Source of the DNA: Candidatus Aenigmatarchaeota archaeon
GTDB taxonomy: Archaea > Aenigmatarchaeota > Aenigmatarchaeia > Aenigmatarchaeales > Aenigmatarchaeaceae
Assembly (NCBI GenBank): GCA_016933455.1
Contig: JAFGAZ010000020.1
Location: forward strand, 119 to 64,118
Length of the DNA stretch: 64,000 bases
Reading direction: 5' to 3'
Shown: positions 12,666 through 31,944 of the stretch, in pieces
Layout of the letters: every line of letters begins with the position of its first letter
Numbering within the stretch: the first letter of the stretch is position 1
Translations under genes and position numbers: made by a program
The notes under the pieces: generated by a model
Told to the model about the DNA's origin: nothing
The model's input: the letters and a program-made list of their open reading frames with translations, nothing else
Database searches by the model: none

Positions 12666-13826
12666 ATGAAAAAGTTTGTTTTGTCGCTTCTTAGAACCGA
12701 TATAGCCAAAAGTAGCGGGCTGATATTCATAGCCACTTTTTTGGCCAATTTGATAGTTTTTGTTGTTGACATCTTCATTTCAAATGTCTTGGGACCTGTG
12801 GACTTTGGTATTTTCAGGACTATATTCTATCTGTTCACTTTCTTGCCGATGCTAATCGATTTTGGAGTGAACATGACTCTGACAAAGTACATTGCCGAGT
12901 TCAAGAAAAGAAACAAGGAAAGGCTAGGATACCTGATAAGGTACTTTATTGGCATAAAGTTAGTATCATTTATTGCTCTAATCATTTTAGTAATACTTCT
13001 CCAGAATCAACTGACTCTTATTTTTCTAAAAGACCCAAGTCTTGGTTACCTAATAGTGCCGGGAATTGTGCTGACATGCGTGGTATTTCTCAATGTTTTC
13101 CAAAACATACTGCTTGGCTTTCAGGAATTCAAGTTATTTGCGCTCTCGCAGTTTCTTGTAACTGCAAGCTCTGCTGTTTTCGGTTATTTGCTAAGCTTTT
13201 TCGGAGTTTTTTACCTGGTTTTGGGCTGGAGTATGGGGTATGTCTTTGGTAACATTTTCTCTATAAGATTTTTCATGAAGCAAAAACTCGGCAAAAAAAA
13301 GTCATTTGACGCAAAAAAGATATTCAAAAATTTCAGCCTGCCGCTTCACGCAGTCTATGTAATAAACAGCATGTATTACGTTATAGTGCCCATACTTAGC
13401 ATATTCTTCTCTCAGGAAGCTGTTGGCTATTTCTCTTTCGCATTTCTGTTTTACTTTGCAGCCATGCTAATTCCCAACGCGGTTTCCTTTGTAATAATGC
13501 CCAAAGTGTCTGAACTTAAGGGTCTGGACAGAATGGGCGATGCCAAAAGAATGCTAATCAAGGTATTCAAGCTCTATACGCCCATAGTCATTGTAGGCAT
13601 AGCCGGCGTTCTTCTGATCTCCGACATAATATTCGGCATGTTCTTCCAGAGCTATATGCAAAGTCTTTTCTTCTTCAAGGTCCTTGTCATAATGAGCCTG
13701 CTTTTCGGCTACAATGTGATATACACCTACTATCTGCAAGGGACAGGCAAAGTCAAGAAATTCGCGGTATTTGCAGTGCTTCAAAACGTCCTGCTTTTGG
13801 CAGCAAGCTTTGCTCTGCTTGCATAG
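12666..13826 (+). CDS. Wzx/MOP-type oligosaccharide flippase-like membrane protein
   Basis: 386 aa and polytopic. The N-terminal pattern resembles polysaccharide-biosynthesis (Polysacc_synt) flippases. It sits immediately upstream of aglB. Confidence 0.6.
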   Translation: MKKFVLSLLRTDIAKSSGLIFIATFLANLIVFVVDIFISNVLGPVDFGIFRTIFYLFTFLPMLIDFGVNMTLTKYIAEFKKRNKERLGYLIRYFIGIKLVSFIALIILVILLQNQLTLIFLKDPSLGYLIVPGIVLTCVVFLNVFQNILLGFQEFKLFALSQFLVTASSAVFGYLLSFFGVFYLVLGWSMGYVFGNIFSIRFFMKQKLGKKKSFDAKKIFKNFSLPLHAVYVINSMYYVIVPILSIFFSQEAVGYFSFAFLFYFAAMLIPNAVSFVIMPKVSELKGLDRMGDAKRMLIKVFKLYTPIVIVGIAGVLLISDIIFGMFFQSYMQSLFFFKVLVIMSLLFGYNVIYTYYLQGTGKVKKFAVFAVLQNVLLLAASFALLA

Positions 13827-13869
13827 CGCCAAATAAACTTTTTATAGTTCTATTTCTAATTCTTCTTAG

Positions 13870-15948
13870 TTGATCATGGACGTAATTGGTATTCTTAAGA
13901 GCAAATGGTGGGTATTTGTCCTAATCTTTATTTTGCTCTACTCGTACCAGATAAGGTCACTAAACATAATAGAGGACAGGATAGTCTCATACGACCCCGT
14001 TGTGCAGTACAGGTACACCTATTATGTTGCCGAGTACGGCCATCTGCCGATATGGGACGAGATGACATATTATGTTGGCAGGCTTTTCGAGTACAACACA
14101 AGCCCGCCTTTGATGTTCTACATAACATCCTTTGTTTACTGGATGGTTCAGTCTTCAGGTATTAGCCTTCTGACTGTTTCAGCATACATGGCTGCCATAT
14201 ACGGCGCGGCAATGGTCATACCAGCGTTTTTGCTTGGAAGGGAGCTTTCCAACAAATACGGAGGGCTTTTCGCAGCGCTTCTGATAGGAACAGCCCCTCA
14301 GATACTCACAAGAACATTTGGCAGCTCGTACGACACTGACCAGATAGTGCTTTTCTTCCTTATGTTGACAATTTACCTTGGATACTATGCTGTAAAGAGA
14401 AAGACTGTCGCAAGCTACTGCATGGCGCTAGGCGGCTTTTTCGGCTTCCTTATGACATGGGGTTACTCATTCTACTCCTACTTCATCATACTGGGCTTTG
14501 TAATCCTATACGCAGTTGTAAAGTTCCTTGTTGGTGAAGGATTTTTCAAGAAGCTAAATGCCGAAAGGTTCAAGGAATTATTCAACGAATTCAAGAGCAA
14601 CGCATTATTCCTTGTGGCCTTGCTAGCAGGCCTTACAGGACTTGCTGCAATAAACGGTGAAAATATACTGCTTCACATAAGAAATGTTGTTGGCTTTGCC
14701 TTTAGCGCAGAGAACTGGATAGTAAACATTTCAATAGCCGAGCTTCAGCCTTTCAACATATTCAGCGTCTCCGGATGGTCTGTTGCAATGGGCAACTTTG
14801 TCACAGGCATAGGAGCAATCGACGTTTCGATATTGGTAGCTTTCTTCTCCTTGATGGCTTTCGGCTTCTTTGCAAGCTTCAAAAAGAAGGATTATATGAA
14901 GTTCTCCTTCCTTTTGACGCTTTTTGCCATAGGCATATACACTACCTTCAGGGGTGTTAGGTTCACAGAGTTCACGTCAACCCTTTTCATAACAATGATA
15001 GCAACCGGGTTTGGAAGCCTTGTTGAATGGGTAAAGGACAGTGACATCAAAAAGACTCTTGTCATAGGCTCCATAGTTTTCATAGCTTTGATAGGAATGC
15101 AGGTAAGCCTTGCAATGGGCGAGCAGCTAGGGCCTGACATGAACGCCAACTGGGACAGTGCCTGGGAATTCCTAAGATCAGAAACATCAGAACTTTCCTT
15201 GGTAGGCACTTGGTGGGACCCTGGCCACATGATAAACGGCCTTGCCGAGAGAAGGAACTTTGCTGACGGGGCCCACTGCCAGAACCAGTGTCTTTACACA
15301 ATAAACGACAGGATAACAGACCTTGGCAAGATAATGGCCACATCAAGCGAGCAAGAATCCCTTGACTTGATAAGAAAGTACACGGGCGATTCGACCGACG
15401 TTTACTGGATAGCTTCAGACGACCTCATAGGAAAGTACAGGTGGCTGCAGTATTTCGGAACAGGCTGCGACGGGACAGCTGACGCGTCATGCCCGCTATA
15501 CATACAACTGGGCCAGACGTCACAGTCAGTGGATGAGGGAGGCAATGTAATGTTTATCAACTATGCAATGTCGGACACTTCGCAATTGATGATTTACAAT
15601 ACGCAAATACCAATACCGATGTTCATGCAGGGCATAGACATAGCGCTTTTTGACGAGTTTATCTATTACAACGGAACCGAGCCGGTTGCAGTGAGCTTTA
15701 GCCAGGAGGAGATTAATCAGTTGGTTGAAGCGCTGTCGCCATTGGAAAGCAAGCTGAATGCAAGATTCACCAATCAGACAATACCAATGACTGTCTGGAT
15801 GCCCAGGCACTATCAGTACATTGTCATAATACCAGACAACCTAAGAAACACGGTCTTTACTAGAATGTTCATGCTAGAGGGCCAGGGCCTTGATCACTTT
15901 GAACAGGTGTTTAGAAACGAGCAGGTAAAGATATACAAAGTGGTATGA
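13870..15948 (+). CDS. aglB: archaeal oligosaccharyltransferase AglB (STT3 family)
   Basis: 692 aa. A multi-TM N-terminal half is followed by a soluble C-terminal half. The diagnostic WWDYG-type motif is present as LVGTWWDPGHMING. The track starts at TTG 13870, and ATG 13876 is an alternative start. Confidence 0.9.
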   Translation: MIMDVIGILKSKWWVFVLIFILLYSYQIRSLNIIEDRIVSYDPVVQYRYTYYVAEYGHLPIWDEMTYYVGRLFEYNTSPPLMFYITSFVYWMVQSSGISLLTVSAYMAAIYGAAMVIPAFLLGRELSNKYGGLFAALLIGTAPQILTRTFGSSYDTDQIVLFFLMLTIYLGYYAVKRKTVASYCMALGGFFGFLMTWGYSFYSYFIILGFVILYAVVKFLVGEGFFKKLNAERFKELFNEFKSNALFLVALLAGLTGLAAINGENILLHIRNVVGFAFSAENWIVNISIAELQPFNIFSVSGWSVAMGNFVTGIGAIDVSILVAFFSLMAFGFFASFKKKDYMKFSFLLTLFAIGIYTTFRGVRFTEFTSTLFITMIATGFGSLVEWVKDSDIKKTLVIGSIVFIALIGMQVSLAMGEQLGPDMNANWDSAWEFLRSETSELSLVGTWWDPGHMINGLAERRNFADGAHCQNQCLYTINDRITDLGKIMATSSEQESLDLIRKYTGDSTDVYWIASDDLIGKYRWLQYFGTGCDGTADASCPLYIQLGQTSQSVDEGGNVMFINYAMSDTSQLMIYNTQIPIPMFMQGIDIALFDEFIYYNGTEPVAVSFSQEEINQLVEALSPLESKLNARFTNQTIPMTVWMPRHYQYIVIIPDNLRNTVFTRMFMLEGQGLDHFEQVFRNEQVKIYKVV

Positions 15949-16115
15949 TGAAAGACGACTTGAAATGTGTTTTCTTTTCAATGCTGGGTCTTTTTTTTGG
16001 CCTAATACTTGTTGACGTTGACCATCTTTTCAACGTGGCGTATTTTCATTGGTTTCCCATAACATTCTTCTTTTTGTTCTTCGGGATAGGCCTGTTCTTG
16101 TGGAGGAAGGACTAG
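15945..16115 (+). CDS. small hypothetical membrane protein (56 aa)
   Basis: Below the track cutoff. My translation is MMKDDLKCVFFSMLGLFFGLILVDVDHLFNVAYFHWFPITFFFLFFGIGLFLWRKD. The start overlaps the aglB stop (ATGA). It ends at TAG 16113-16115, directly followed in the same frame by the next ATG. Confidence 0.35.
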   Translation: MMKDDLKCVFFSMLGLFFGLILVDVDHLFNVAYFHWFPITFFFLFFGIGLFLWRKD

Positions 16116-16397
16116 ATGATATTCTTCTACCATCTTCTGATATTGATTGCAAGCTCGTCTGGCCTGCTTTTGTCTTATTTTGTAAAAGACAAAATGAAAA
16201 CAAGAAGATACCTAATGTTGTTCTTCCTATTCCTGGGACTTTCAATGTTCATCCACTTTATCATAGACAGCATTCCGGTTCCAAAGGAAAATTTCATAAG
16301 ATACTATATGAATCTAGAGCCGCACGAGGACCTTTCGCTAGATTTTCTAATAGGAAAGGCAATGGAACTTAAGCAGTCGGCTAACATCAGCGGCTAG
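16116..16397 (+). CDS. small hypothetical membrane protein (93 aa)
   Basis: Two hydrophobic segments. It is in the same reading frame as 15945..16115, and only one TAG separates the two ORFs. Confidence 0.4.
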   Translation: MIFFYHLLILIASSSGLLLSYFVKDKMKTRRYLMLFFLFLGLSMFIHFIIDSIPVPKENFIRYYMNLEPHEDLSLDFLIGKAMELKQSANISG

Positions 16398-16422
16398 GTT
16401 GAAAAAAAATAAAAGGTATAAC

Positions 16423-17118
16423 ATGAAAACATACGCGCTCATATGCGCATACAACGAGGAAAAGATGGCAAATCTTGTCATAAAAAACACTTTGAATCAT
16501 GTAGACAAGGTCATTTTTGTTAATGATGGCAGCGAGGATAAGACTTTTGAAAAGGTAAAAAATGAGTTTGGTAAAAACAGGAAAGTAATAATAATTTCTT
16601 ACAAAAAAAATCGCGGCAAGGGATATGCGACAAGGCTTGGATTTAAAAGATTTCTAAAAGAGAACGGCGACATACTGGTAACTCTTGATTCCGACGGGCA
16701 GCACGATCCAAAGGAAATTAAACTGCTATTGTCCCAAATCAATGACAAAAATTGCGACATAATAATAGGGACAAGGTACAAGGGAGAAACAAAACAGCCG
16801 GGCATCAGGAAATTTTTCAACAAAATGTCAAGCATAATAGTCAAGATGCTGTCAAGCGGTGACTTTGACGACGTGGCATCAGGCTTTAGATGCTATTCCA
16901 AAAAAGCCATAAAAATAATAGAGCCCTCGTTGAAATTGGACGGCTTTGGCATAGAACCTGAGATACTTCAGATAGCTGGCAGAAATAATCTAAAGGCGAA
17001 ATCTGTTCAGATATCCTGCAAATATGACAAAGGCAAGGAAAAGAAGAATCTTTGGAAAATGGGGATGGACTATATCAGGTATGCCATAAAATACAAGAGC
17101 GGTTTGTTAAAAAACTAA
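16423..17118 (+). CDS. GT2 glycosyltransferase, dolichyl-phosphate hexose synthase-like
   Basis: The track ORF begins at TTG 16399. I prefer ATG 16423 (MKTYALICAYNEE). GT2 blocks are present: FVNDGSEDKT, LDSDGQHDP and GFRCYS. Confidence 0.75.
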   Translation: MKTYALICAYNEEKMANLVIKNTLNHVDKVIFVNDGSEDKTFEKVKNEFGKNRKVIIISYKKNRGKGYATRLGFKRFLKENGDILVTLDSDGQHDPKEIKLLLSQINDKNCDIIIGTRYKGETKQPGIRKFFNKMSSIIVKMLSSGDFDDVASGFRCYSKKAIKIIEPSLKLDGFGIEPEILQIAGRNNLKAKSVQISCKYDKGKEKKNLWKMGMDYIRYAIKYKSGLLKN

Positions 17119-18593
17119 AGAACGCGCCTTCTAAAGAAAAGCTTGAATGCGATCTTTGCGTCCTCGAAAAGTTCCCTTACACTTTTTAGGTTCCTAAGCC
17201 TCTTGAAGATGTAATAGGGCCTTAGGTAGTATACCCTATAGCACCACTTTACAAGGTACTCCAATTGCTCGTGCGTCATCTCGGGAAAATCAACTATGCC
17301 TGTGTTGTACGGGTCTATTCCCTCCCAGTCGCCTGACTTTGTTGTGAACCACTTGTTCTTCTTGACAATCTTGTAGAATTCCAATGAGGGGTGAGGAGCC
17401 ACAATGCCAAAAGACACAAAATCTATGTCTAGCATCTTTAGTATCTTGACAGTCCATCTGATATCATCGACTGTCTGAAGGGGTGAAGCTCCCAAAAGTA
17501 TGTTTATCTTTGGCTGGATGCCGACCTTCTTTAGAAGTATTATAGCGTTCATCTGAGCTCCTGGAGTTGTGCCCTTTCTGACATAGTCCAGAACCTTCTT
17601 GTCAAAGCTCTCAACGCCTATGTCAACGTACATGCAACCGGAATCTCTCATCTTCTGCAAGACTTCCTCGTCCTGCAGCTGGTCTGCCCTTGCCAAACAT
17701 CCCCATTCCATTTTCAAGGGCTTGATTAGGTCGCATATCTTCATTATCCTTTCCTTGTAGCCCTTTGTCGGGACTCCCATGAAGTTGTCGTCCATTATAG
17801 CAACAGACCTATATCCCTGTTTCTTGACTTGTTTGAATTCCTCGTATATGTTCTTTGGCGACCTTTCTGTCATTGGAGGCTTTTTGCCGCACTTGTTCTT
17901 CCACTCAATTTCCCTGGCAAAGTTGTAAGCCGCTGGTATGCAGTATATGCACTGGCCCCAGCACTGCCTTGTTGTAAACATTGTTGTTGTGGGCCTTTTG
18001 CTGAGCTTGGGATTAAAGTAAGCATAAGGCGTTTTTATCAAATGCCTTGCCGGAAACGGCAGCTTGTCCAAATTGTCTATGTAATGCCTCGGATAGATGT
18101 TGTAGACCTTCTTGCCCTTCATGAAGCTAAGGCCGTTGATTCCCTCAAGGTTATCGGATTTCTTTTTGATTTTATTCATTAGGTCGAGAATAATATACTC
18201 TGGCTCGCCTCTTACAACGAAAGTCTTTTCATCGCTTAGATATTTCTCAGGAACTCTTGTGGGCTCAGGTCCCATGAATATGACTATGGCGTCCTTGTTA
18301 AGCTCCCTTATCCTGTCTCTCCAGTAGATGTCGGTCTTCTCAGCAAGATACACTGTAAAGAACACGAAAACATCGGATTTCTTATTTTCAACATAATTTT
18401 CCAGCCATTTCTTGCTCTTCTTTTGCACCACACAGTCGATGAACTCTACATCAAAGCCGGCCTTTTCAAGAACTGCCGCTGGGTAGAGTATGTGTATGGG
18501 CTGCTGGAACGAAAGGCCATAGTTGCACCCAAAGCACCTCTCCGGAGCCCTGCTCTGCGGGTATGCTGGTGGTATCAAAAACGTTACTTTCAT
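17115..18593 (-). CDS. B12-binding-domain radical SAM protein, paralogue 1
   Basis: 492 aa. The N-terminal Rossmann-like region (MKVTFLIPPAY...FDVEFIDC...IVIFMGPEPT) is followed by the radical SAM cluster motif TTRQCWGQCIYC (CxxxCxxC). Confidence 0.8.
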   Translation of the reverse strand: MKVTFLIPPAYPQSRAPERCFGCNYGLSFQQPIHILYPAAVLEKAGFDVEFIDCVVQKKSKKWLENYVENKKSDVFVFFTVYLAEKTDIYWRDRIRELNKDAIVIFMGPEPTRVPEKYLSDEKTFVVRGEPEYIILDLMNKIKKKSDNLEGINGLSFMKGKKVYNIYPRHYIDNLDKLPFPARHLIKTPYAYFNPKLSKRPTTTMFTTRQCWGQCIYCIPAAYNFAREIEWKNKCGKKPPMTERSPKNIYEEFKQVKKQGYRSVAIMDDNFMGVPTKGYKERIMKICDLIKPLKMEWGCLARADQLQDEEVLQKMRDSGCMYVDIGVESFDKKVLDYVRKGTTPGAQMNAIILLKKVGIQPKINILLGASPLQTVDDIRWTVKILKMLDIDFVSFGIVAPHPSLEFYKIVKKNKWFTTKSGDWEGIDPYNTGIVDFPEMTHEQLEYLVKWCYRVYYLRPYYIFKRLRNLKSVRELFEDAKIAFKLFFRRRVL

Positions 18594-18636: not shown

Positions 18637-19257
18637 TTAAGCCTGCTTTTCAAGCAGAAGCATATAGTTGTAGCAGATGGGCCTGAATAGCTCTCCTAGA
18701 GCCCTTGACAGGGGGAATAGGAACCTTAGGCTTGAGGGTATCCAGAAAAAGTGCCTCGCTTCCTTTAGTTTGAAGCCGTTCTTCTTGAAAATGTTGATTA
18801 ATTCCTTTTCCTCTATGAAATAGTCCTTTGAGTCGTGGACATCGTCGCTCCATCCAAGCCTTTTTGCAAAGTTTATGAGCCTGGGGTTGGGAGTTGATAT
18901 CACAACTCTTCCCCCAGTCCTTAGCACTCTGGTTATTTCCTTTACAGGGCTCTTTTTTCCAGGCACATGCTCTATCACCTCAAGGCAGCAAACCCCTTCA
19001 AATGTGTTGTTCTTGAATGGTATCTTGGATATGCTTCCTAGTTTTACTATGCCCTTTTTCTTGGACATCTTTATCGCTTCCTTGTCCATGTCTATGCCGT
19101 ACCAGTTCTTGTTTTTCAGGTTAAAGCCCGCCCCGCAGCCAATGTCTAGGACCTTTCCCCTGAGGTTCTTGGCAGCGTACTTGTATCGATACAGATGCAA
19201 GAAAGCCTCGTATGCTTTTCTTTTTTTCAATTCGTTTAGCGTGAACCAGCATTTCAT
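18637..19257 (-). CDS. class I SAM-dependent methyltransferase
   Basis: 206 aa with motif I VLDIGCGAGFN and the downstream block CLEVIEHV. Confidence 0.75.
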   Translation of the reverse strand: MKCWFTLNELKKRKAYEAFLHLYRYKYAAKNLRGKVLDIGCGAGFNLKNKNWYGIDMDKEAIKMSKKKGIVKLGSISKIPFKNNTFEGVCCLEVIEHVPGKKSPVKEITRVLRTGGRVVISTPNPRLINFAKRLGWSDDVHDSKDYFIEEKELINIFKKNGFKLKEARHFFWIPSSLRFLFPLSRALGELFRPICYNYMLLLEKQA

Positions 19258-19261: not shown

Positions 19262-19957
19262 TCACTTTTTCCTAGTAGGATAGTAGAGCACTGCCCCTAT
19301 TAAAGTTCCGAGCAGAAAGCCTATTTTAGAAACTATAAGACCCAGTTCCCTTTTCAAAAGGCTGAAGGCGTTCTTCTTGCCGCTGCCTTTGAAATTGGAC
19401 TTGAAGCCTGCCTGGCCGTACTTCATCTGTATCTTGACAAGCAGTATGCCGTAAAGGAAATTGTTTCTAATCATCTTGGAAACTGAATTGCTTCTTTCGT
19501 GCAGAACGGGGGCTATCGGAAGTTCGACTCCTTTGTAGCCCCTTTTCCTAAGCCTTGCGTAAAGCTCGGTGTCCTCTGCTATGGGGAAGGACTCGTCAAG
19601 CTTGTTTTCTTTCATCACATTCGCATAGGCGGCAAAGTTGGACCAGTCCCATGTGGAGGGCGTCACCTCGATTCCCCTTACAAGCGTTCTTTTCTTTTTG
19701 TCATTTCTGTTTTCTTTCTTGACAGCATTGACCATCTCTTCAAGCCACGTGTTTGTCATTGGCATTGCGTCTGTTTCTGTTATGACAATTATTTCTCCTT
19801 TGGCTTTTGATATGGCATCGTTCATTGCCTGGGGTATTCCCTTTTTGGTAGAATATACTAGCTCGAAATCTTTGAATGTCTGTTTCTTGAGAGCTTCTTT
19901 TAGCTTTCTCAAGTCTCTTTCGTTTCTCGCTATGGTTACTACTGAAACTTGAGGCAT
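19262..19957 (-). CDS. GT2-like glycosyltransferase (short form, C-terminal TM)
   Basis: 231 aa. The N-terminus VSVVTIARNERDLRKLKEALKKQTF and the block IIVITETDAMP fit GT2. There is a hydrophobic C-terminus. The stop abuts the next gene with a 0-nt gap. Confidence 0.6.
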   Translation of the reverse strand: MPQVSVVTIARNERDLRKLKEALKKQTFKDFELVYSTKKGIPQAMNDAISKAKGEIIVITETDAMPMTNTWLEEMVNAVKKENRNDKKKRTLVRGIEVTPSTWDWSNFAAYANVMKENKLDESFPIAEDTELYARLRKRGYKGVELPIAPVLHERSNSVSKMIRNNFLYGILLVKIQMKYGQAGFKSNFKGSGKKNAFSLLKRELGLIVSKIGFLLGTLIGAVLYYPTRKK

Positions 19958-21376
19958 CTAATTACCCTTCGGTTTTATCACAGAATTCAAAAGCACTTTT
20001 GCCGCTCCCTTAAGTCCCTTGTATTTGTATAGGTTGTAAAAATGGAAAACTATGATGTCGGGTCTTTTCGTGACCATCTTCCTGTACCAGAGCTTGTTTG
20101 CCAAGTTGAGGTTTTCCTTTATCTGGTCGTGCGTGTATCCAGGAAGGTCGACAACGCATTCGGTGTTTGCAATAAAGTTCTTCCAGTCGGTTTCAACAAA
20201 CAAATCGTTGTCCTTGCACCACTTGTTGAGCCTTGTCCCTGGAAACGGCATGCAGACTGAGAACTGCAAAGTGTCAGACGGCAGGTTTATTGCAAACTCT
20301 ATTGTTTCCCTGTCGCTTTCCTTGGTAGAACCCTTCATGCCCAACACCCAGCAAAGGTGCGTTCTAAGTCCGAGCTTGTTGCACGATTCAACGAATTCTT
20401 TTATGTCTTTTCTTGTTATGGGCTTGCCTTCCAGCTGCTTGAGAACTTTGTCATCAGCGGACTCTGCCCCTATTGTTATCCCTGTGCAACCCGCATCTCT
20501 CATAATTTTTAATGTATTGTAACTGATCTTGGCATCTGCCATGCAGTTCCATTTAACTTTCGATTTTCTTCGTATCAGTTCCTTGCAAATTTTCTTGACA
20601 TGTGACTCGTTAATGCTAAAGTTGTCATCATCAAAGTAAAGCTCGTCTGGTTTGTATTTGTTCCAAAGATATTCCATTTCGTTTACAATATCGTTAACAT
20701 CTTTTCTCATCCTATAACTTTTTTGCCTATAGTAAGTTTCAACAGTGCAAAAATTGCATCCCCATGGACATCCTCTGGAAGTAATCATGACTACATTGAA
20801 ACCGTGAAGCTTTGGATCGTTGTACTTGTCCATTGGAAGCTCGTCTCTTTCTGGCCAAGGAAGCTCGTCCAAATCTTGTATCAATGGTCTTGGTCTGAAT
20901 TTTTGTCCTTTTGCAGCAACGCCTGCAGGAAAACTTTTTTCTTCCTTGTTTAGCCATCTAACAAGACCAAGAATGCTGTATTCACACTCACCCACTATTG
21001 CAAAATCGTATCCTGCATTGACACATTCATTATACGCCGGGGTTGCATGATAACCTGAAGCTGCGAATTTTATTTTAGAATTAAACTTCTTAATCATCTT
21101 CATTGTTTTAAGATCATGTTCGAAAGAAGATGCAGTGGTTTCCCATACTATTAAATCGGGCTTTATTTCTCTGACTTTTTTTAGAAATTCTTTTCTTGTC
21201 ATCTCCGATGCAGTGGCATCTACTATATGAGCATCATAACCATGCTTCTTTAGAACTGAAGTTGCATAAGCAAGCCTTACAGGATAAGGAAAATAGTTGG
21301 CAGCACCCTTTGGTAGCTTTATGTCCCATCTACATCTGAGCCAAAGACCTGGTGGGTTTGCAAGTAAGATTTTCAT
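19958..21376 (-). CDS. B12-binding-domain radical SAM protein, paralogue 2
   Basis: 472 aa. MKILLANPPGLW...YDAHIVDA is followed by ITSRGCPWGCNFC (CxxxCxxC). Confidence 0.8.
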   Translation of the reverse strand: MKILLANPPGLWLRCRWDIKLPKGAANYFPYPVRLAYATSVLKKHGYDAHIVDATASEMTRKEFLKKVREIKPDLIVWETTASSFEHDLKTMKMIKKFNSKIKFAASGYHATPAYNECVNAGYDFAIVGECEYSILGLVRWLNKEEKSFPAGVAAKGQKFRPRPLIQDLDELPWPERDELPMDKYNDPKLHGFNVVMITSRGCPWGCNFCTVETYYRQKSYRMRKDVNDIVNEMEYLWNKYKPDELYFDDDNFSINESHVKKICKELIRRKSKVKWNCMADAKISYNTLKIMRDAGCTGITIGAESADDKVLKQLEGKPITRKDIKEFVESCNKLGLRTHLCWVLGMKGSTKESDRETIEFAINLPSDTLQFSVCMPFPGTRLNKWCKDNDLFVETDWKNFIANTECVVDLPGYTHDQIKENLNLANKLWYRKMVTKRPDIIVFHFYNLYKYKGLKGAAKVLLNSVIKPKGN

Positions 21377-23531: not shown

Positions 23532-23535
23532 AATA

Positions 23536-24578: not shown

Positions 24579-26084
24579 TTATATTAACTCAAAAATTATG
24601 CTTTCAGTATTCTGATACGTAGCATTGAAATGATCCGGATCGTTCATTACAACATCAAGGAAGTTCGTAGTAAATATTCCCAAAAGGTTGCTTTCTGGCA
24701 CAACGAAATTATTTCCTAAAACACTGCTCCACACAAGTATGTATGAAACGTTATAGTCTTTCAGTGTGTCGTATATGTAAGTGGAATCGCTTGTTGACAT
24801 TATCTCAGGCAACTCGTCTATGACCCATATAGCGTCCCTTTGAGCGAAGTATTTTACGCTACCTGCATATGTTGTAAGTACGAATTCGTCTTCTTGTGTA
24901 TTTTTTCCAAGCCATGTCAAAGCATTGACATAGTTGTCAGAATATCTTTGTGAAGATGAAGTGCTCATTGCTACAATAGAGCTAAAGTAAATCGATACTA
25001 TAACAAAACTTAACAACAAAACCGTGAATATTTTTTTGTAATCTTTGAGTCTGTATATGAAAAACCCACCTATTAGAGCCATTTGAGGAAATATTATGAA
25101 TATGTTTCTTGGTTCGGATATACCGAGTTGAAGGAAGTAGTATATGTTGTATAGTAACAAGAAAATTGCGGCCAAAAGCATGAAAAAAGCAACATCTTTG
25201 TTGACTTTATTTTTGCCCGCTTCCATGAAGAATAAGACAACGCTAAATATCATGGATATCATCATCAAATAACTTGTATTCGATATGTAGCTATCCAAAG
25301 TGAACATATGATTTGAAAAGTCTTGTGCTGTTATTCCCGACCATCCACTAAAAGCATCCGTAGGAGCATCGAAAAACGAATTGAGGAAAAGTATGTGTGG
25401 ATAATCGTAAAGTATTATGTTTCTAAGCGGAAATGCCATAGATAGCATTGCGGCAATGACTAATGCTATGAACAAATTCCTAAGTATTTCCTTGTCTTTC
25501 TTGTGAAGGTAAACCAAAATTTCGAAAATAAAGAGACCGGCAATCAGGAAAAGGCCGCTCTGCTTGGCAATAAATGAAAGGAAAAGCACAACGCCTGTCA
25601 AGACAGCCCCCTTGCCAGAGTCCATGTTCAAAATAACATAAGTTGCCAGTGCGGAAAAGAACGCAACAGGAATTTCCAAATAAACAAGCATCATATAATG
25701 ACTAAAAAGTGTTGCAGAAAGCAGTATGAAAGCTGCCAATATTCCATAAAAAACATTTATTCTCTTGCCTATCAGATAAACGACAAGCATTGTCAAAATG
25801 CCAAATGATGCTATTATCATCTTGGCTAAAGCCAAAGAAGGACCAAATATCATGAAAGGCACTGACAAAATCAAAGGTATCAAAGGCTGCATTGTACCTG
25901 TTGCTCTATTACCACTATCATAGGCAGGATATTCTGATTGAGAAAATGTTATTCCTAAATCATAGAAAAATGCTTCGTCCTCACCAAGCATCTGAGTCTG
26001 GGAAGCCAAATAAACAAAAACTATTCCAAGAACCAGAAGCGAGACTAGAAACAACTTTTCCATCATTTTTTCATCAAGCTTCAT
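24579..26084 (-). CDS. GT-C fold membrane glycosyltransferase (GT39/ArnT/PMT-like)
   Basis: 501 aa with about 11 hydrophobic segments. An acidic first-loop motif (LGEDEAFFYD) resembles the DE loop of PMT/ArnT-type enzymes. The C-terminal domain is soluble. Confidence 0.6.
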   Translation of the reverse strand: MKLDEKMMEKLFLVSLLVLGIVFVYLASQTQMLGEDEAFFYDLGITFSQSEYPAYDSGNRATGTMQPLIPLILSVPFMIFGPSLALAKMIIASFGILTMLVVYLIGKRINVFYGILAAFILLSATLFSHYMMLVYLEIPVAFFSALATYVILNMDSGKGAVLTGVVLFLSFIAKQSGLFLIAGLFIFEILVYLHKKDKEILRNLFIALVIAAMLSMAFPLRNIILYDYPHILFLNSFFDAPTDAFSGWSGITAQDFSNHMFTLDSYISNTSYLMMISMIFSVVLFFMEAGKNKVNKDVAFFMLLAAIFLLLYNIYYFLQLGISEPRNIFIIFPQMALIGGFFIYRLKDYKKIFTVLLLSFVIVSIYFSSIVAMSTSSSQRYSDNYVNALTWLGKNTQEDEFVLTTYAGSVKYFAQRDAIWVIDELPEIMSTSDSTYIYDTLKDYNVSYILVWSSVLGNNFVVPESNLLGIFTTNFLDVVMNDPDHFNATYQNTESIIFELI

Positions 26085-26105: not shown

Positions 26106-27074
26106 CTACTTAAATTTTACAAAAATACCGCGAAAGATGCCAAAGCACCAGGCAATGTTCCTGAAGGCAAATATCGCAAAGTACAATAGAAAATCGCTGC
26201 CTTTCCTGCTCAGCCTGTCGGCAAGGGCAAAGTACGTGAAAAGAAGAACGCCTAAAGGAAGCAAAGAGACGTATAGCAATTCGGGAAAAACAAAAGACAT
26301 TAGCAAAAACAACGCGAACGAATATATCAGCGTTATCTGGAAGGGTATGTAGAACTTTGTCAGATGGTCCCCGAACATCTTGTCCTTGTGCTTTTTGGCA
26401 AAAAACAGCATGAAGGCCGCCCTGGCATAGGCGTACTGCTGCTTAAAGTAGTTCTTCCATGTGGCCCGATGATAGTGGTAGACAATGGCGTCTTTCACAA
26501 AAACCATGCGCCCAAGCTTTGTGACCCTATAGCCCCAGTCGGTTTCCTGGGCAACTGCCAGATCCTCGTCAAACAGGACCTTTTTGGCAATCCTTGTCCT
26601 GACGCAAAGGGATATGGTGGGCAGGCGATCGACATATCTTGGCATCCTAGAAAAACGGTACTCTAGCTCCCTTCCGATTAGCTTCTGGAGAGTATTAACG
26701 CCTTTGGGGGTTTTGACCATTCCACCTGAAGCAACAACAGCCTCGCTGTCTATTGCCGAAATTAGCTTCTTTAGCCAGTCCTTTTGCACAACGCAGTCGG
26801 CGTCTGTAAAGGCGATGTACTCACTTTTGCACCTTCTTATCATGTGGTTATGGCCTGCGGCGATGTTGCCCTTGACCCTTTCAAGCCTTATCTTTTTGCC
26901 GTATTTCTTGAGAATTTCAAATGTCCCGTCGTCAGAATAAGCATCGGTCACATAGATTTTCTTGTTTTTGTAGTCCAGTTTCAGCAAGGAGTCTATGCAC
27001 TTTTTGATGGTGTTGCTAGAATTCCTAACAGTCACAAGCACTGTAACAGAAGGCTGCTTTGAAGACATCGTCAT
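26106..27074 (-). CDS. GT2 glycosyltransferase with C-terminal TM segments
   Basis: 322 aa with PSVTVLVTVRNSSNTIKKCIDSLL and IAFTDADCV. It is the first gene of the nine-gene minus-strand operon. Confidence 0.75.
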   Translation of the reverse strand: MTMSSKQPSVTVLVTVRNSSNTIKKCIDSLLKLDYKNKKIYVTDAYSDDGTFEILKKYGKKIRLERVKGNIAAGHNHMIRRCKSEYIAFTDADCVVQKDWLKKLISAIDSEAVVASGGMVKTPKGVNTLQKLIGRELEYRFSRMPRYVDRLPTISLCVRTRIAKKVLFDEDLAVAQETDWGYRVTKLGRMVFVKDAIVYHYHRATWKNYFKQQYAYARAAFMLFFAKKHKDKMFGDHLTKFYIPFQITLIYSFALFLLMSFVFPELLYVSLLPLGVLLFTYFALADRLSRKGSDFLLYFAIFAFRNIAWCFGIFRGIFVKFK

Positions 27075-27193
27075 CCTTTATTAAACGTTAATTTTTGAAT
27101 ATAATACTATTGTTTTGGCGTTTTAATAAGTAAAATCAAAAAAAGTCAATATTATTAAAATCCAAGGCATAAACAAATATACGAGATGATAAG

Positions 27194-28624
27194 ATGAAAG
27201 CAGTGTTTTTGAATCCTCCTTTTAAGAAATTCTACAACAGGGTTGTGAGGTGGCAGGCGGTCACCAACCAGGGAGCTTTGCACCCGCCCATTTGGCTATT
27301 GTACCAGGCTACCATGACAAAGCAGTCCGGGCACAAGGTCGATTTCATAGACGCCATTGCGGAGAATCTGGACTACCAGAAGACAATAGACAGGATAGGC
27401 GATGCTGACGTTGTGGTCATGGAAACAGCTGCATCATCTTTCAACAACGATGTCAGGTTTGCCAAAATGATAAAGGAGCAAAGGCCTGACATAAAGATAG
27501 CCATGTCAGGGCCGCAGGTAACGGCAATGCCCAAGTTCTCGATGAAAGAGCCAATAGACGCTGTGATATTCGGTGAGGCAGACCTTACAACAAAGGAATA
27601 TGTTGACAGCCTAAACCAGGCAAACAAGTCAGACATACTAGGACTTGTTTGGAGAAACGGCAATGAAATAGTCCAAAACAAGCCAAGGCCCCTAATAGAG
27701 GACCTAGACAGCATACCTGTGCCGGACAGGAGCTTATTGCCGATGGACAAGTACAGCGACTCCATGTTCCCGTCGCCTTTCTCTTTTTACTATACCATGA
27801 GGGGCTGCGCCTACAAGTGCATCTACTGCCTTTGGACTCACACGATATACAGGCAAAGGCTAAGGTTTAGGAGCCCGAGGCTGGCAGCAGAGGAAGTGCT
27901 AAACGATATCAAGAAACTAAAGTTGAAATGCTTCTACATCAACGACGAGTGCTTTACTGTGAACAAAAAGCATCTTATGGAATTCTGCAGGGAATTGGGC
28001 GACCCGGGCATAAGATGGGGCTGCTACTTTAGGTCGGACAACATAGACGAGGAGATGTGCAAAAGGCTAAAGGACAGCGGCTGTGAGATAATAAGAACTT
28101 CACCTGAAGTTGGGACAAACGAGGGTTTGAAAGTGATAAACAAGGGCGGAACCGCGTCAATGGAAAATGACATAAAGGCTTTCAAGCTGGCAAAGAAATA
28201 CGGGTTTGAAATTTACGCATCGTTTGTCTTGGGACATCCGGGAGAAACAAAGGAGACTATAAAGAAAACAGTCGAACACGCAATAGAGCTTGAGCCGGAC
28301 ACGGCGCAGTTCGCAATACTTCAGCCTCTTCCAGGAACGCCTTTCTACAACTACCTAAAGGAGAAGGGATATCTTCTCACTGAGAACTTTGACGACTATC
28401 TTAACGAGGCGGGCTCGACAAAGGCGGTTTTCGAGTACCCGTGGCTTTCACATGAGGACCTTGTTAACGGCTGGCACTATTGCTGGAGAAAATTTTATAT
28501 GAGACCCAAATTCATATTAAGAACAGGGCTTAGGCTTCTAAAGCATCCCAAGTTCATAGTGCCTACGATAAGCGCATACATGAACATGAGAAAGTCAAGC
28601 CTGAGCAAGAAGGTCGAATGGTAA
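27194..28624 (+). CDS. B12-binding-domain radical SAM protein, paralogue 4
   Basis: 476 aa. MKAVFLNPPFKK...HKVDFIDA is followed by TMRGCAYKCIYC. Confidence 0.8.
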   Translation: MKAVFLNPPFKKFYNRVVRWQAVTNQGALHPPIWLLYQATMTKQSGHKVDFIDAIAENLDYQKTIDRIGDADVVVMETAASSFNNDVRFAKMIKEQRPDIKIAMSGPQVTAMPKFSMKEPIDAVIFGEADLTTKEYVDSLNQANKSDILGLVWRNGNEIVQNKPRPLIEDLDSIPVPDRSLLPMDKYSDSMFPSPFSFYYTMRGCAYKCIYCLWTHTIYRQRLRFRSPRLAAEEVLNDIKKLKLKCFYINDECFTVNKKHLMEFCRELGDPGIRWGCYFRSDNIDEEMCKRLKDSGCEIIRTSPEVGTNEGLKVINKGGTASMENDIKAFKLAKKYGFEIYASFVLGHPGETKETIKKTVEHAIELEPDTAQFAILQPLPGTPFYNYLKEKGYLLTENFDDYLNEAGSTKAVFEYPWLSHEDLVNGWHYCWRKFYMRPKFILRTGLRLLKHPKFIVPTISAYMNMRKSSLSKKVEW

Positions 28625-30042
28625 TGACAAAAATTTTGCTAGTAGAGCCGCCGGCACCGAAAAAACATAAAAGTTTGAGAGTTCTTGGAAGCGTGGGTTC
28701 TTTGAAAGCCAACATGATTTGGCCGCCATACGATCACATGCTAATCGGGGGTCTTCTTAGAAAAAATGGCATTTATGATTTTGACATAATAGATGCTCAG
28801 AACCTAAACATCACTTATCCGCAGCTAAAAAACATGATAAGAAAGGCAAGGCCCGAGTTTGTTGTTTTCACAACAACCAACCACAGCCTTCCAAGCGACC
28901 TAAACACGGCAAAGGTTGCAAAGCAGGTTGACAAAAACATAAAGACTGCGGCAATCGGTCTTTCAATCCAGGCAATAAAGGACTTGGACAATGTAATGAA
29001 GAAAAACAAGGATTTGGATTTCATAGTATACAACGAGGCAGAGTACCCGGTGCTCAATTTGATAAAGAATAATTACAATCCCAAAGATGTTCTTGGCATA
29101 TACTACAGAAAGGGCGGAAAGATTGTAAAGAACAAACCGCAACCGCCAATAGACTATGATTCTTTGGGAATTCCGGCGCAAGACAAGATTCCTTTGGAAA
29201 TATACAAGGACCCGCTGATGGAAAGAAAGCCCTTCACTTTGGTTTGCAACTCCAGGGGCTGCGTGGGCTCGTGCATTCACTGCTCGTCTTTCCCGTTCCA
29301 AAGGCCCCTAAGGCACAGGTCGATAGACAATGTCATAGAGGAGCTAAGGCTGATAAAGAGGCTGGGCGTCAAGGAGATAAAGTTCTTTGACAACTGCTTC
29401 ACCGGCAATCCCAAGTGGACTGAAAAGTTCCTCAAAAGAATGATAGAAGAAGATTTCAATTTCACATGGCTATGCGATGTAAGGGCGGATTGCACGCCAA
29501 TGCATCTGTTAAAGCTCATGAAAAAGGCAGGATGCCACACAATAATGATGGGCGGGGATAGCGCAGACCAAAAGGTCTTAGACAGCATGCACAAGAGGCA
29601 GACAGTAAAGCAAGTAGAAGACGCAGTGAAGAGAATCAAGAGCCTTGGTTTCAAGCTCCTGCTTTATTTCGAATTCGGCTATCCAGCAGAAACAAAAGAG
29701 ACAATGGAAAAGACAATAGAGTTTGCCAAGAGAATGGATCCTGACATGGTAACCTTTGCAGTTGTTACGCCTGTTTACAAAACGCAGTTCTATGACTTTT
29801 TGGAAAAGAACAACTATCTTGACAAGAGCGCGAACATAGAAAAATACGACACAATAAAGCCCCCTGTTTACAACTATCCGCATCTATCAGCCGAAGAAAT
29901 ATACGCAGCATCAACAAAAGGCTATCGTGAATTCTACCTGAGGCCAAAGTTCATATTAAAGAGATTGAAAAATTCCCCGTCGCTAAAAGACGACATTGAG
30001 AATTTCAAGATGTTCATGAAGCAGTTCATCCTAAGAAACTAG
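28618..30042 (+). CDS. B12-binding-domain radical SAM protein, paralogue 5
   Basis: 474 aa, with ATG 28624 as an alternative start. (M)TKILLVEPPAPKK is followed by CNSRGCVGSCIHC. It overlaps the stop of paralogue 4 (TAATG). Confidence 0.8.
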   Translation: MVMTKILLVEPPAPKKHKSLRVLGSVGSLKANMIWPPYDHMLIGGLLRKNGIYDFDIIDAQNLNITYPQLKNMIRKARPEFVVFTTTNHSLPSDLNTAKVAKQVDKNIKTAAIGLSIQAIKDLDNVMKKNKDLDFIVYNEAEYPVLNLIKNNYNPKDVLGIYYRKGGKIVKNKPQPPIDYDSLGIPAQDKIPLEIYKDPLMERKPFTLVCNSRGCVGSCIHCSSFPFQRPLRHRSIDNVIEELRLIKRLGVKEIKFFDNCFTGNPKWTEKFLKRMIEEDFNFTWLCDVRADCTPMHLLKLMKKAGCHTIMMGGDSADQKVLDSMHKRQTVKQVEDAVKRIKSLGFKLLLYFEFGYPAETKETMEKTIEFAKRMDPDMVTFAVVTPVYKTQFYDFLEKNNYLDKSANIEKYDTIKPPVYNYPHLSAEEIYAASTKGYREFYLRPKFILKRLKNSPSLKDDIENFKMFMKQFILRN

Positions 30043-30953
30043 AATTTGGGTTCTCTTTTGTACTTTACATATATTTTTGTTCGCTTCTCGCTTTTCTTTC
30101 TATGAGCCGCTGCTATTGAAACAGTGTAAACCATTCCCCAATAGAAGAATGCGGCAATGTCTTTTAGGGAATACTTGTAGATGTTTGAGAGAAAATACAA
30201 AAACACTTTCGAATAGAACTTGCCGTATTTTATCTTTCTTCTTTTGGCAATTCTCATCAATGCAATCGTACTTCTTCTTTTTTGCAGAAACAGCCTGCTC
30301 GAATCTTTAGGTAAACCGATCGGATAGTACGGTATGTCAGGAAAAAGGAGCTTGTATCCCTGCTCTATTATCCTATACCCGAACTCTATGTCGTCTGCCA
30401 TTATTCTCGGGTTTATTTTCGGTATCAGTTTCTTCCTAAAGGAGTTGCATATCAAAGGCATGTCCCATTTGCCTTCTATTACAGGATGCTTCTGAGTGAA
30501 CCAGTCGTAGACAAGGCGCTGCACGAATATCTCGCCCCTGGATATCATGCTCTTTCTCTTCTCGGATTCCAAAGAGTCCCTTACCCTGAAAGATAGCCCG
30601 CCGACTTTCGGGTCCTCGTATAGCTTGGCGACCTGAAACAGAACCTTTGAGGGGTTTCCCAGCCTTATGTCGGCATCGTTCTTGACAATTATATCTCCTG
30701 TCGCCCTTTTTATCAGGTCATTTTCAGCAGCGCTTGTGCCCCTTCTTTTGGGGGAGAAATCAATTTTTATCCTCTTGTATTTCTTGGCATACTTTTTTGC
30801 AATCTCATGTGTCTTGTCTTCGTCAGTATCGATTCCGATTATTATCTCAAGATTTGGATATTTTATTTTCTTGACAAGATACTCCAAGGCATTGCCGATT
30901 GTTTCCTCTTCCTTGTATGCCGGAACTATGACAGAAATCTTGGGATATTTCAT
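30039..30953 (-). CDS. GT2 glycosyltransferase
   Basis: 304 aa with PKISVIVPAYKEEETIGNALEYL, IGIDTDEDKT and VKNDADI. Confidence 0.75.
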   Translation of the reverse strand: MKYPKISVIVPAYKEEETIGNALEYLVKKIKYPNLEIIIGIDTDEDKTHEIAKKYAKKYKRIKIDFSPKRRGTSAAENDLIKRATGDIIVKNDADIRLGNPSKVLFQVAKLYEDPKVGGLSFRVRDSLESEKRKSMISRGEIFVQRLVYDWFTQKHPVIEGKWDMPLICNSFRKKLIPKINPRIMADDIEFGYRIIEQGYKLLFPDIPYYPIGLPKDSSRLFLQKRRSTIALMRIAKRRKIKYGKFYSKVFLYFLSNIYKYSLKDIAAFFYWGMVYTVSIAAAHRKKSEKRTKIYVKYKREPKF

Positions 30954-30975
30954 AATATCTTATTGCAATTTTGTT

Positions 30976-31944
30976 TTAAAAAATCCAGTCACTGTCAAAG
31001 GAAAATTGCTTTGGGGCAAGAATAGGCATTTTGCTTGCAAGCCCGACACCCAGCCAGCGGGCAAATCTCGAGGTTCTAATCTTTGTGCCGAATTTTAGCT
31101 TCAAGGAAGAATTGTACTTGGAAAAATTCGGAAAACTTTTGACAAGCATATCACCCGCCTCAAGCCCCCATATGACGCCGCCCCCGCTCCAGGGCTTTGT
31201 AAGGCCGATCGCATCACCGCACAGGGCCACGTTTCCCTTTGCAGCATCAACAAGACCCCCAGGTATCACATAAGAATATGTCTTTTTTGGCTTTGTCCTG
31301 TTCTTCTTGCAGAAATCCTTGTACATCTTGCTTGCAACATCAGGCATTTCCATTACACCAAATTCCACGGTTCCCTTTCTGGGTATTTTCCAGCAAAAGC
31401 CGTTTTCAGTTGGATAAATGTCAACAGTTTTTGAATCACCCTTTCTTTTGACATAGCCATAAATCCCTAATCGGTGTTTTGGTTGCTCTATGCCAACGCC
31501 TTTTCTCACAACAGAAAAGAAGCCATCGCAGCCAATAAGTCTGTCAAACTCTATGACTTTCTTTCCCACCTTGACCTGCGGCTTCATGCCCTTGACATTG
31601 TATACCATGTCGACCTCGGTTCCAAGCTTTATTTCAGCGCCAGCCTTTTCAGCCAAAGACGCAACATACTGGTCGAGCTTTTTTCTGTCAAGAATAAGCA
31701 TGTCAGGCCTGAATTTCAAAACAACTTCCTTTTTAGGGAAATGCAGCTTGGCCTCGTTTATATCATTGATGATTAGATTTTCGTTCTTTGGGATGTGATT
31801 CCACAGTCTTTTGGAAACTATGCCAGAGCACACGTCCTTGCCAACAACTTTCTTTTTCTCAAACACAGTCACTTTGTGCCTTTTTGCAAGCCTATATGCC
31901 AAATAGGCCCCGTTTATGCCGCATCCAACTATGCCGATTCTCAT
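30976..31944 (-). CDS. geranylgeranyl reductase family FAD-dependent oxidoreductase
   Basis: The track ORF runs to 32151, which would overlap secF. I prefer the start MRIGIVGCGINGAYLAYRL at 31944 (a GxGxxG dinucleotide fold). Family blocks DVCSGIV, LIGCDGFFS and LCGDAIGLTKPWSGGG are present. Confidence 0.75.
   Translation of the reverse strand: MRIGIVGCGINGAYLAYRLAKRHKVTVFEKKKVVGKDVCSGIVSKRLWNHIPKNENLIINDINEAKLHFPKKEVVLKFRPDMLILDRKKLDQYVASLAEKAGAEIKLGTEVDMVYNVKGMKPQVKVGKKVIEFDRLIGCDGFFSVVRKGVGIEQPKHRLGIYGYVKRKGDSKTVDIYPTENGFCWKIPRKGTVEFGVMEMPDVASKMYKDFCKKNRTKPKKTYSYVIPGGLVDAAKGNVALCGDAIGLTKPWSGGGVIWGLEAGDMLVKSFPNFSKYNSSLKLKFGTKIRTSRFARWLGVGLASKMPILAPKQFSFDSDWIF

Follow-up and report, generated by a model that had tools for sequence, protein, structure and literature searches.

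Candidate radical SAM cassette for sugar tailoring in an AglB-type glycosylation locus of a Candidatus Aenigmarchaeota genome

To our knowledge, no characterised Agl pathway contains radical S-adenosylmethionine (SAM) enzymes, and the locus described here raises the question of what a whole set of them does beside an aglB gene. The locus lies in a 64-kb window (the whole stretch of DNA analysed) of a metagenome-assembled genome of Candidatus Aenigmarchaeota, a lineage of the DPANN archaea; an 11.7-kb piece of this window was found to be identical in a second assembly. A preliminary description had read it as an N-glycosylation locus with five paralogous cobalamin (B12)-binding radical SAM proteins, one radical SAM/SPASM protein and two methyltransferases, whose products would install radical-chemistry modifications such as C-methylations on the N-glycan or its dolichol-type carrier. 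The answer that we favour, with moderate confidence, is that an AglB-dependent N-glycosylation or surface-glycan cluster has been extended by a radical SAM cassette that would edit the carbon skeletons of sugars while these are lipid-linked.

Gene content and family placement

The window was analysed by open reading frame (ORF) listing, translation, Pfam and NCBIfam profile scans, transmembrane prediction, AF2 modelling, Foldseek searches and gene-neighbourhood comparison. The radical SAM genes, the glycosylation genes and the two methyltransferase genes are listed below (GT, glycosyltransferase; nt, nucleotides).

17115-18593 (-), B12-domain radical SAM protein A, CWGQCIYC; PF04055 1.4e-17, PF02310 1.7e-8 (34.8 bits)
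19958-21376 (-), B12-domain radical SAM protein B, CPWGCNFC; PF04055 1.8e-16, PF02310 7.6e-13 (48.8 bits)
22152-23531 (-), B12-domain radical SAM protein C, CPFNCVYC; PF04055 4.6e-24, PF02310 1.1e-19 (70.9 bits)
27194-28624 (+), B12-domain radical SAM protein D, CAYKCIYC; PF04055 2e-17, PF02310 4.5e-16 (59.2 bits)
28618-30042 (+), B12-domain radical SAM protein E, CVGSCIHC; PF04055 7.5e-24, PF02310 32.0 bits
23536-24567 (-), radical SAM/SPASM enzyme, CNLKCKMC and C-terminal Cys clusters; PF04055 8.7e-20 (72.0 bits), PF13186 4.7e-17 (62.5 bits)
12666-13826 (+), Wzx/AglR-type flippase candidate; Polysacc_synt 1.4e-18, nine hydrophobic segments
13870-15948 (+), AglB oligosaccharyltransferase (STT3 family); STT3 PF02516 1.3e-22, WWDPGH in the translation
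16399-17118 (+), DPM1/AglJ/PpgS-like GT2; Pfam GT2 4e-22
18637-19257 (-), class I SAM methyltransferase; Methyltransf_11 3.1e-15
19262-19957 (-), divergent GT2-like protein with one C-terminal transmembrane segment; GT2 2.3e-7, profile covered in part
21381-22148 (-), class I SAM methyltransferase; Methyltransf_11 2.1e-18
24579-26084 (-), GT-C of the GT39/ArnT type; PMT_2 3.7e-4 (21.2 bits, cut-off 26.1)
26106-27074 (-), GT2 with C-terminal transmembrane segments; Pfam GT2 2e-25, MftF-like 107 bits
27075-27193, AT-rich divergent intergenic region of 119 nt, read in the sequence and presumed to be a shared promoter region
30039-30953 (-), GT2 with a PgaC-like top match; Pfam GT2 1.6e-22

Since every part and motif quoted in the preliminary description was present, the observation itself was confirmed. 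Pfam matches identified the standard Agl parts (flippase, aglB, the DPM1-like GT2 and three more GT2 genes) at the coordinates listed, and profile searches recovered PF02310 and PF04055 in all five paralogues, PF04055 with 61-86 bits (threshold 29.5 bits) and PF02310 with A and E lying at its threshold of 32.1 bits. The SPASM protein was recognised by PF04055 and PF13186, the two class I SAM methyltransferases by Methyltransf_11, and the second GT-C enzyme, whose own PMT_2 score is sub-threshold, by its GT39-named homologues and its fold. The six CxxxCxxC motifs, WWDPGH and the LGEDEAFFYD loop of the GT-C were all read in the translations, and the ORF listing gave nine minus-strand genes spaced by 0-43 nt, together with the divergent region at 27075-27193, just as had been reported. 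Paralogue E overlaps D by 7 nt. The start of paralogue C is most likely at MKVLLV, which gives a protein of 459 aa (22152-23531; the ORF listing had 22152-23672), as it is called in locus L001.

Pairwise identity among the five paralogues is only 26-31%; they are old subfamilies rather than recent copies. For all five the top profile was HpnJ (TIGR03471), with 157.5 bits for A, 213.7 for B, 199.9 for C, 291.6 for D and 197.3 for E, none of which reaches the curated cut-off of 577.6 bits; the same profile was best for every extra paralogue tested in relatives. Paralogue D is the most HpnJ-like, its match covers the full length, and 32 of 32 D homologues match HpnJ at 1e-60 or better, the best at 2e-146 being still under the cut-off. 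Since HpnJ is the best profile but stays below its cut-off, the group was regarded as HpnJ-like and not as HpnJ; hopanoid gene context (shc, hpnH, hpnI, hpnK) was found neither in the window nor in any fetched locus. BchE (TIGR02026) was the second-best profile (100-187 bits against a cut-off of 481; 186.9 for paralogue C), with no (bacterio)chlorophyll genes alongside the paralogues. Lower still were the scores for the AprD4 family (NF033070; 57-94 bits against 500), HpnR (TIGR04367; 50-88 against 650), the C-methyltransferase family of ribosomally synthesised and post-translationally modified peptides (RiPPs; 57-103 against 282), PhpK and the MCR methylase, all far below the curated NCBIfam cut-offs. 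The ladderane-type lipid-biosynthesis B12/radical SAM family TIGR04072 (32-132 against 360) and ApyD (up to 152 against 750) also stayed far under theirs. The SPASM enzyme, homologues of which occur in L003, L022, L018 and L053, reached no NCBIfam equivalog (best 134 bits against 380), and its best PDB sequence matches were BtrN (C-terminal domain only, 5.7e-12) and PqqE. None of the radical SAM proteins belongs to any curated NCBIfam family. Placement of the paralogues within a family of known unrelated function had been named beforehand as an outcome that would speak against the proposal, and no such placement was found among the curated NCBIfam families.

The AF2 model of paralogue D (pLDDT 93.5) consists of a Rossmann domain, a TIM domain and C-terminal helices. 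Its best Foldseek match was AprD4 with the substrate paromamine bound (TM-score 0.76/0.80), followed by the cobalamin enzymes CysS, TsrM, MgmA, TokK and OxsB, and a profile search against PDB sequences gave the same order with AprD4 at its head. AprD4 and these five enzymes are matched alike, so that the fold does not separate methylases from non-methylases. The residues in contact with cobalamin include a Ser motif after beta3, a Gly in beta4 and a Gly-Glu pair (GE, the cobalamin-tail motif) at alpha5 (PMC9204698). All five paralogues keep the Gly in beta4 and the Glu of the pair, which reads NE in E and aligns with GE of CysS and MgmA. A T/S-x-S-x-F/L-like motif was seen in the alignment in B, C, D and E and is missing from A. 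The N-terminal domains of OxsB, CysS and MgmA were matched at the sequence level, and that of AprD4 was not. The conservation of these motifs is suggestive of cobalamin binding in the paralogues, not proof of it.

Intein-like insertions were observed in three homologues, at three different conserved Cys sites: after the N-terminal CFGC of an A-type orthologue (L050:8001-10148), after a conserved WGC (L049:5985-8146) and directly after CxxxCxxC (P0273, PF14890).

Among the glycosylation proteins, AglB scored 38.6 bits against the archaeo_STT3 cut-off of 450 and is therefore not a member of that subfamily. The best NCBIfam matches of the GT2 at 16399-17118 were PpgS (72.8 bits), AglJ (65.3 bits) and an ArnC-type family, and this protein is predicted to be a dolichyl-phosphate (Dol-P) sugar synthase. 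Because the scores for the GTs and for the Agl equivalog models are all under the cut-offs, roles only were assigned, not orthology. The GT-C has 11 transmembrane segments and, in its first outer loop, an EDE motif that is nearly invariant in 45 homologues carrying the name GT39 and PF13231/PF02366. Its AF2 model (pLDDT 93.1) matched STT3 (4.5e-11) and ArnT (2e-9, TM-score 0.65/0.62) in Foldseek, and also AglB, PglB, AftA, ALG12 and Pmt4. GT-Cs of the GT39/ArnT type draw monosaccharides from polyprenyl-phosphate donors at the outer face of the membrane, and for this protein a dolichyl-phosphate-monosaccharide donor, used on the outer face, is predicted. The methyltransferase at 18637-19257 reached no NCBIfam family cut-off; its reaction is probably an O-methylation. 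Pfam scans of the cluster revealed no conventional NDP-sugar epimerase, dehydratase or aminotransferase. With an STT3 protein bearing the WWDxG motif, a Dol-P-charging type of GT2, further GTs, a flippase and sequon-rich anchored acceptors (see the last section), the locus in the window is of the AglB type.

Conservation of the linkage

The fetched loci carry L numbers, L002, L003, L041 and L042 being four long Aenigmarchaeota contigs. The unit of a GT2 and the D-E pair was found in 4/4 of these contigs (D identity 64-78%), where orthologues of the GT2 at 26106-27074 are 44-62% identical and always divergent from D-E. The GT-C occurs in three of the four, paralogue B in two and paralogue A in one. 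Both L003 and L041 have orthologues of B (64-73% identical) and of the GT2-like protein at 19262-19957 (44-52%), and L003 has a 75% identical orthologue of the GT2 at 30039-30953. At least seven radical SAM genes together with a GT87-like protein were found in L042, whereas L041 has four genes each for radical SAM proteins and methyltransferases and five for GTs. A metagenome scan with paralogue A gave 11 more loci. The order aglB-GT2-A is shared by the window, L002, L044 and L045 at 50-82% identity, the AglB orthologue adjoining the same GT2 and paralogue A in each of the relatives; GT2-A also occurs in the short contigs L052 and L054, and in all six cases A is convergent with the DPM1-like GT2. 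The co-location with aglB and GT genes, on the conservation of which the preliminary description had also staked its proposal, is thus kept in relatives, and since the clustering recurs in independent genomes it is not due to chance. The content of radical SAM, methyltransferase and GT genes varies widely among close relatives, and diversifying surface-glycan loci therefore fit better than a conserved carrier lipid.

A genome scan for paralogue D with an 11-sequence alignment recovered orthologues (34-41% identity) in 33 species-level genomes from two domains, the taxa being Iainarchaeia, Chloroflexota, Omnitrophota, Brocadiaceae, Pirellulales, Nitrospinae and Dehalococcoidia. Within +-6 kb of these orthologues a GT2 was found in 25/33 (in 23 of the AglJ/PpgS/ArnC-like type) and at least one further B12-radical SAM gene in 25/33. 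The 243 neighbouring ORFs (L008-L040) gave the following Pfam tally: Radical_SAM 34, GT2 32, B12-binding 30, GT1/4 20, Polysacc_synt 18, methyltransferases about 18, Phosphodiest (type I phosphodiesterase/nucleotide pyrophosphatase, PF01663) 10, PMT_2 at least 8 and UDP-glucose dehydrogenase 7. The D-E pair is kept in the four long Aenigmarchaeota contigs and in the Omnitrophota/Brocadiaceae loci L030, L032, L035 and L039, the bacterial orthologues of E being 40-45% identical. A 707-aa protein found on three contigs (P0263) is a natural fusion of an AglJ/Dol-P-hexose-transferase-like GT2 to an E-type radical SAM protein. In the Nitrospinae locus L038 a DUF2304 protein follows a PpgS-like GT2, which is the order of the PpgS-Rv3632 arrangement of mycobacteria. 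As the cassette is also present in bacterial surface-glycan loci, it is not specific for N-glycosylation.

Brocadiaceae metagenome-assembled genomes, which belong to the anammox family, have D-, E- and D-like radical SAM genes in series (L030:4554-10685, and L039); in L030 the series is preceded by a 569-aa membrane protein whose match to AglB is faint. The S-layer O-glycan of Kuenenia is reported to carry up to five methyl groups, the positions of which were left unresolved (PMC5088730). That paper does not connect the methylation with radical SAM genes; such a connection is kept as a lead only, because D/E-type genes occur in Brocadiaceae genomes.

Proposed pathway and alternative explanations

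From the comparisons above we infer the following order of events. The DPM1/AglJ/PpgS-like GT2 would put a monosaccharide on dolichyl phosphate at the cytoplasmic face, and the other membrane-anchored GT2s would lengthen the lipid-linked saccharide or saccharides. The five HpnJ/AprD4-like B12-domain radical SAM enzymes, possibly with the use of cobalamin, would then alter the lipid-linked sugars by C-methylation, deoxygenation/dehydration, ring rearrangement or oxidation, and the BtrN-like SPASM enzyme and the two class I methyltransferases may add further modifications. The Wzx-type flippase would carry the products outward, where AglB could hand the glycan to the adjacent sequon-rich surface proteins and the GT39/ArnT-like GT-C could add a dolichyl-phosphate-borne, perhaps modified, sugar outside the cell.

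Sugars, most likely lipid-linked ones, are put forward as substrates on several grounds: a polyprenyl-phosphate GT2 is a steady partner, one natural protein joins a GT2 of this kind to an E-type radical SAM enzyme, the same operon encodes an ArnT-type GT-C, and the closest characterised relatives, HpnJ, AprD4 and BtrN, act on sugars or cyclitols. These nearest relatives rearrange or dehydrate sugars and do not methylate them, so that C-methylation is one option only. The earlier proposal of radical tailoring was accordingly supported with respect to the glycan and narrowed in two respects: C-methylation no longer has a privileged place, and a sugar target is better supported than the polyprenol chain.

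Among the closest known systems is the HpnI-HpnK-HpnJ branch of hopanoid side-chain biosynthesis, in which HpnJ contracts a sugar ring. HpnJ acts on lipid-linked glucosamine made by a GT2 and is known from genetics only (PMC13459092). In that branch a GT2 attaches a sugar to a lipid, after which the product of a neighbouring B12-domain radical SAM gene rearranges the lipid-bound sugar, a plan that the present locus would share. The window differs in its archaeal host, in the lack of hopanoid genes and of a YdjC-type deacetylase, and in having five to seven paralogues instead of one HpnJ. An HpnI-like identity of the partner GT2 was considered and found unsupported, the partner being of the AglJ/PpgS or MftF type. 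Radical SAM tailoring at sugar carbons would be shared with AprD4/AprD3, GenK, GenD1, Fom3 and BtrN (GenK and Fom3 compared by description only), which, unlike the enzymes proposed here, belong to secondary metabolism and act on soluble substrates.

The Agl pathway of Haloferax volcanii (AglJ, AglG/I/E, AglP, AglR, AglS, AglB) has the same general plan, with a Dol-P-charging GT2, further GT2s, a SAM methyltransferase, a Wzx-like flippase, an outside-acting Dol-P-sugar membrane transferase, AglB and a heavily sequon-bearing surface protein; it differs in that the matches of the window to the Agl equivalog models are all under the cut-offs. In the three-component systems ArnC/ArnD/ArnT, GtrA/B/C and PpgS-Rv3632-Rv3779, a GT2 makes a polyprenyl-phosphate monosaccharide, which may be changed on the lipid, as by ArnD, before it is flipped and a GT-C transfers the sugar. 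The GT2 of the window has PpgS- and ArnC-type models among its top matches, and the GT-C model from the window matches ArnT, whereas on-lipid radical SAM modification is not described in those systems. For archaeal enzymes, Cds, the calditol synthase of Sulfolobus, has been proposed to contract the ring of lipid-linked glucose as HpnJ does (PMC13459092). Cds, GrsA/B, Tes and Gms/Gmm, compared by description only, are likewise archaeal radical SAM enzymes, but their targets are the cores or head groups of membrane lipids, while the present genes stand in a protein-glycosylation context. DPANN archaea are generally without lipid synthesis.

Several points weigh against the proposed editing of lipid-linked sugars. 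The HpnJ scores are about half the cut-off or less, so that homology does not fix the reaction, and most characterised class B enzymes are methylases with non-sugar substrates. The enzyme that matches best in structure, AprD4, works without cobalamin, and no cobalamin transport or salvage genes were found in the 64-kb window, including the flanking 45 kb. Adjacency to aglB is confined to Aenigmarchaeota and is not seen in the wider D family, the GT2-radical SAM fusion is a single case on short contigs, and all homologues come from uncultured organisms. To these are added the known bias of SPASM enzymes towards peptides and the possibility that nucleotide sugars, still to be transferred, are the radical SAM substrates; both lead to separate explanations.

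If unusual sugars were made at the soluble nucleotide-sugar stage, the GT2s would simply transfer finished sugars; glycans would still be tailored, though away from the lipid carrier. The absence of predicted transmembrane segments from the paralogues would agree with this, as would the action of AprD4, GenK and Fom3 on soluble substrates, and a cluster without conventional NDP-sugar enzymes needs some other route to unusual sugars. We regard this course of events as unlikely, since the substrate of HpnJ, whose profile is the closest, is a sugar bound to a lipid, the adjacency that is kept and the one fusion involve a polyprenyl-phosphate GT2 and not a nucleotidyltransferase, and the operon includes an ArnT-type GT-C. 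It is quite improbable that the target is an isoprenoid, that is, the dolichol carrier or scavenged membrane lipids methylated, cyclised or cross-linked in the manner of HpnP/HpnR, GrsA/B and Tes, with the product of a neighbouring geranylgeranyl-reductase (GGR) homologue saturating the chain. Several archaeal lipid-tailoring enzymes are indeed radical SAM proteins (PMC13459092), a GGR-family gene lies at the edge of the cluster, and weak matches to HpnR and TIGR04072 were obtained. These matches, however, are far under the cut-offs and weaker than those to HpnJ, and it is secFD, not the set of glycan genes, that the GGR gene follows from genome to genome. The constant partners, in organisms of two domains with different lipids, are GT2s, methyltransferases, flippases and GT-Cs, and the variation of radical SAM copy number among close relatives is unexpected for a conserved carrier.

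The B12-radical SAM and SPASM proteins might also be peptide or protein maturases, performing RiPP-like C-methylation, epimerisation or cross-linking, for example of surface proteins, and merely be co-located with the glycan genes. SPASM enzymes are mostly peptide maturases, large secreted proteins are encoded next to the cluster, and the ApyD and RiPP C-methyltransferase profiles were matched, albeit far under their cut-offs and below HpnJ. The locus yielded no precursor peptide, protease or RiPP recognition element, the sole small ORFs encode hydrophobic two-helix membrane proteins that are not kept in relatives, and the conserved partner is a GT2, in one instance fused; we therefore consider maturation very improbable.

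The editing of lipid-linked sugars may, more tentatively, be extended beyond this locus. A widespread HpnJ-like cobalamin-dependent clade would then edit sugar skeletons on polyprenyl-phosphate carriers, and the edits would be C-methyl branches, deoxygenation or contraction to carbasugar or cyclitol rings. In this way genome-reduced DPANN archaea and several uncultured bacterial phyla might do without the nucleotide-sugar enzymes that usually tailor sugars and still build highly variable, non-canonical N-glycans and surface glycans, obtaining cobalamin from hosts or neighbours. So broad a generalisation is possible and still doubtful. The taxonomic reach is in any case wider than is visible from the window, as uncultured archaea and bacteria have related sets in surface-sugar loci.

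A battery of class-B-type radical SAM enzymes is not known from any characterised protein-glycosylation or surface-polysaccharide pathway. Searches of the literature for radical SAM enzymes with AglB, undecaprenyl, O-antigen or DPANN returned nothing relevant, and 2026 reviews of B12-radical SAM and of lipid radical SAM enzymes list no glycan- or dolichol-directed member; the combination of an Agl-type glycosylation locus with radical SAM sugar tailoring is not described before in the literature searched. If lipid-linked sugars are indeed tailored in this way, unusual sugars would be reached by a new route and cobalamin radical SAM chemistry would gain a new class of substrate; the paralogues would also give HpnJ many relatives on which the mechanism could be studied. 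As the life of DPANN archaea is one of attachment to hosts, their surface glycans are likely determinants of the interaction; a B12-dependent hypervariable glycan cassette would couple surface diversity to the cross-feeding of a cofactor. The compact conserved units (GT2 with D-E, and aglB-GT2-A) are open to heterologous expression.

Surface proteins and neighbouring genes

The remaining features at and next to the cluster are the following.

5896-8739 (-), 947-aa surface protein with a CE4 polysaccharide-deacetylase domain; Polysacc_deac_1 3.2e-24, transmembrane segments at both ends
8800-12594 (-), 1264-aa sequon-rich S-layer-like surface protein; transmembrane segments 10-41 and 1201-1237
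15945-16115 (+), 56-aa ORF with two hydrophobic helices; ATG overlapping the aglB stop codon, no Pfam match
16116-16397 (+), 93-aa ORF with two hydrophobic helices; beginning straight after the stop of the previous ORF, chance-level Pfam matches only
30976-31944 (-), flavoprotein of the geranylgeranyl-reductase family, not named in the preliminary description; TIGR02032 135.6 bits (cut-off 158.8) over the whole profile length

The 1264-aa protein, which had no Pfam match, contains 94 N-x-S/T sequons against 32.7+-5.1 in shuffled sequences, and the 947-aa protein, with an N-terminal signal/transmembrane segment and a C-terminal transmembrane anchor, has 47 against 14.8+-3.3. The former is probably the main substrate of AglB and the latter probably also an N-glycosylation substrate. 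The two proteins share long sequon-rich repeats and a Cys-rich stalk ahead of the anchor.

The 450-nt interval between aglB and the GT2 is filled by the 56-aa and 93-aa ORFs, which are coupled by their start and stop codons. No counterpart was found at the equivalent position in the relatives L002 and L045. These ORFs could encode a small flippase or accessory subunits of the GT2, or could be non-coding. A 107-aa ORF at 16049-16372 was judged spurious, the two coupled ORFs, in another frame, being preferred.

The GGR-like protein may saturate polyprenol/dolichol or a lipid, and whether it belongs with the cluster is uncertain; its gene lies beside secFD in L003, L047 and L048, at times apart from glycan genes. 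Long upstream start codons were rejected for this gene, as for paralogue C. In a 75% identical relative, the last GT2 is separated from the GGR-like gene by genes of a TauE-family exporter and of the PAPS-reductase family (L003/L004:13812-15469). These exporter and reductase genes are not present in the window and hint at sulfur or sulfate chemistry tied to the glycan locus.

The rest of the window encodes housekeeping functions (aminoacyl-tRNA synthetase, PolB, Cdc6, NrdDG, RadA, RPA and peptidases), and tRNA and Rfam scans of the window gave no matches. The anaerobic class III ribonucleotide reductase NrdD and its radical SAM activase (51588-54349, -) indicate that the organism lives anaerobically and has one route to deoxynucleotides that does not use B12. 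Within the cluster, the stretch 22000-26000, which takes in paralogue C, the SPASM gene and the GT-C, has a G+C content of 0.34-0.35, compared with about 0.41-0.45 elsewhere, and paralogue C is the least conserved of the five between relatives (31-51% identity), which together suggests a swapped or recently acquired segment.

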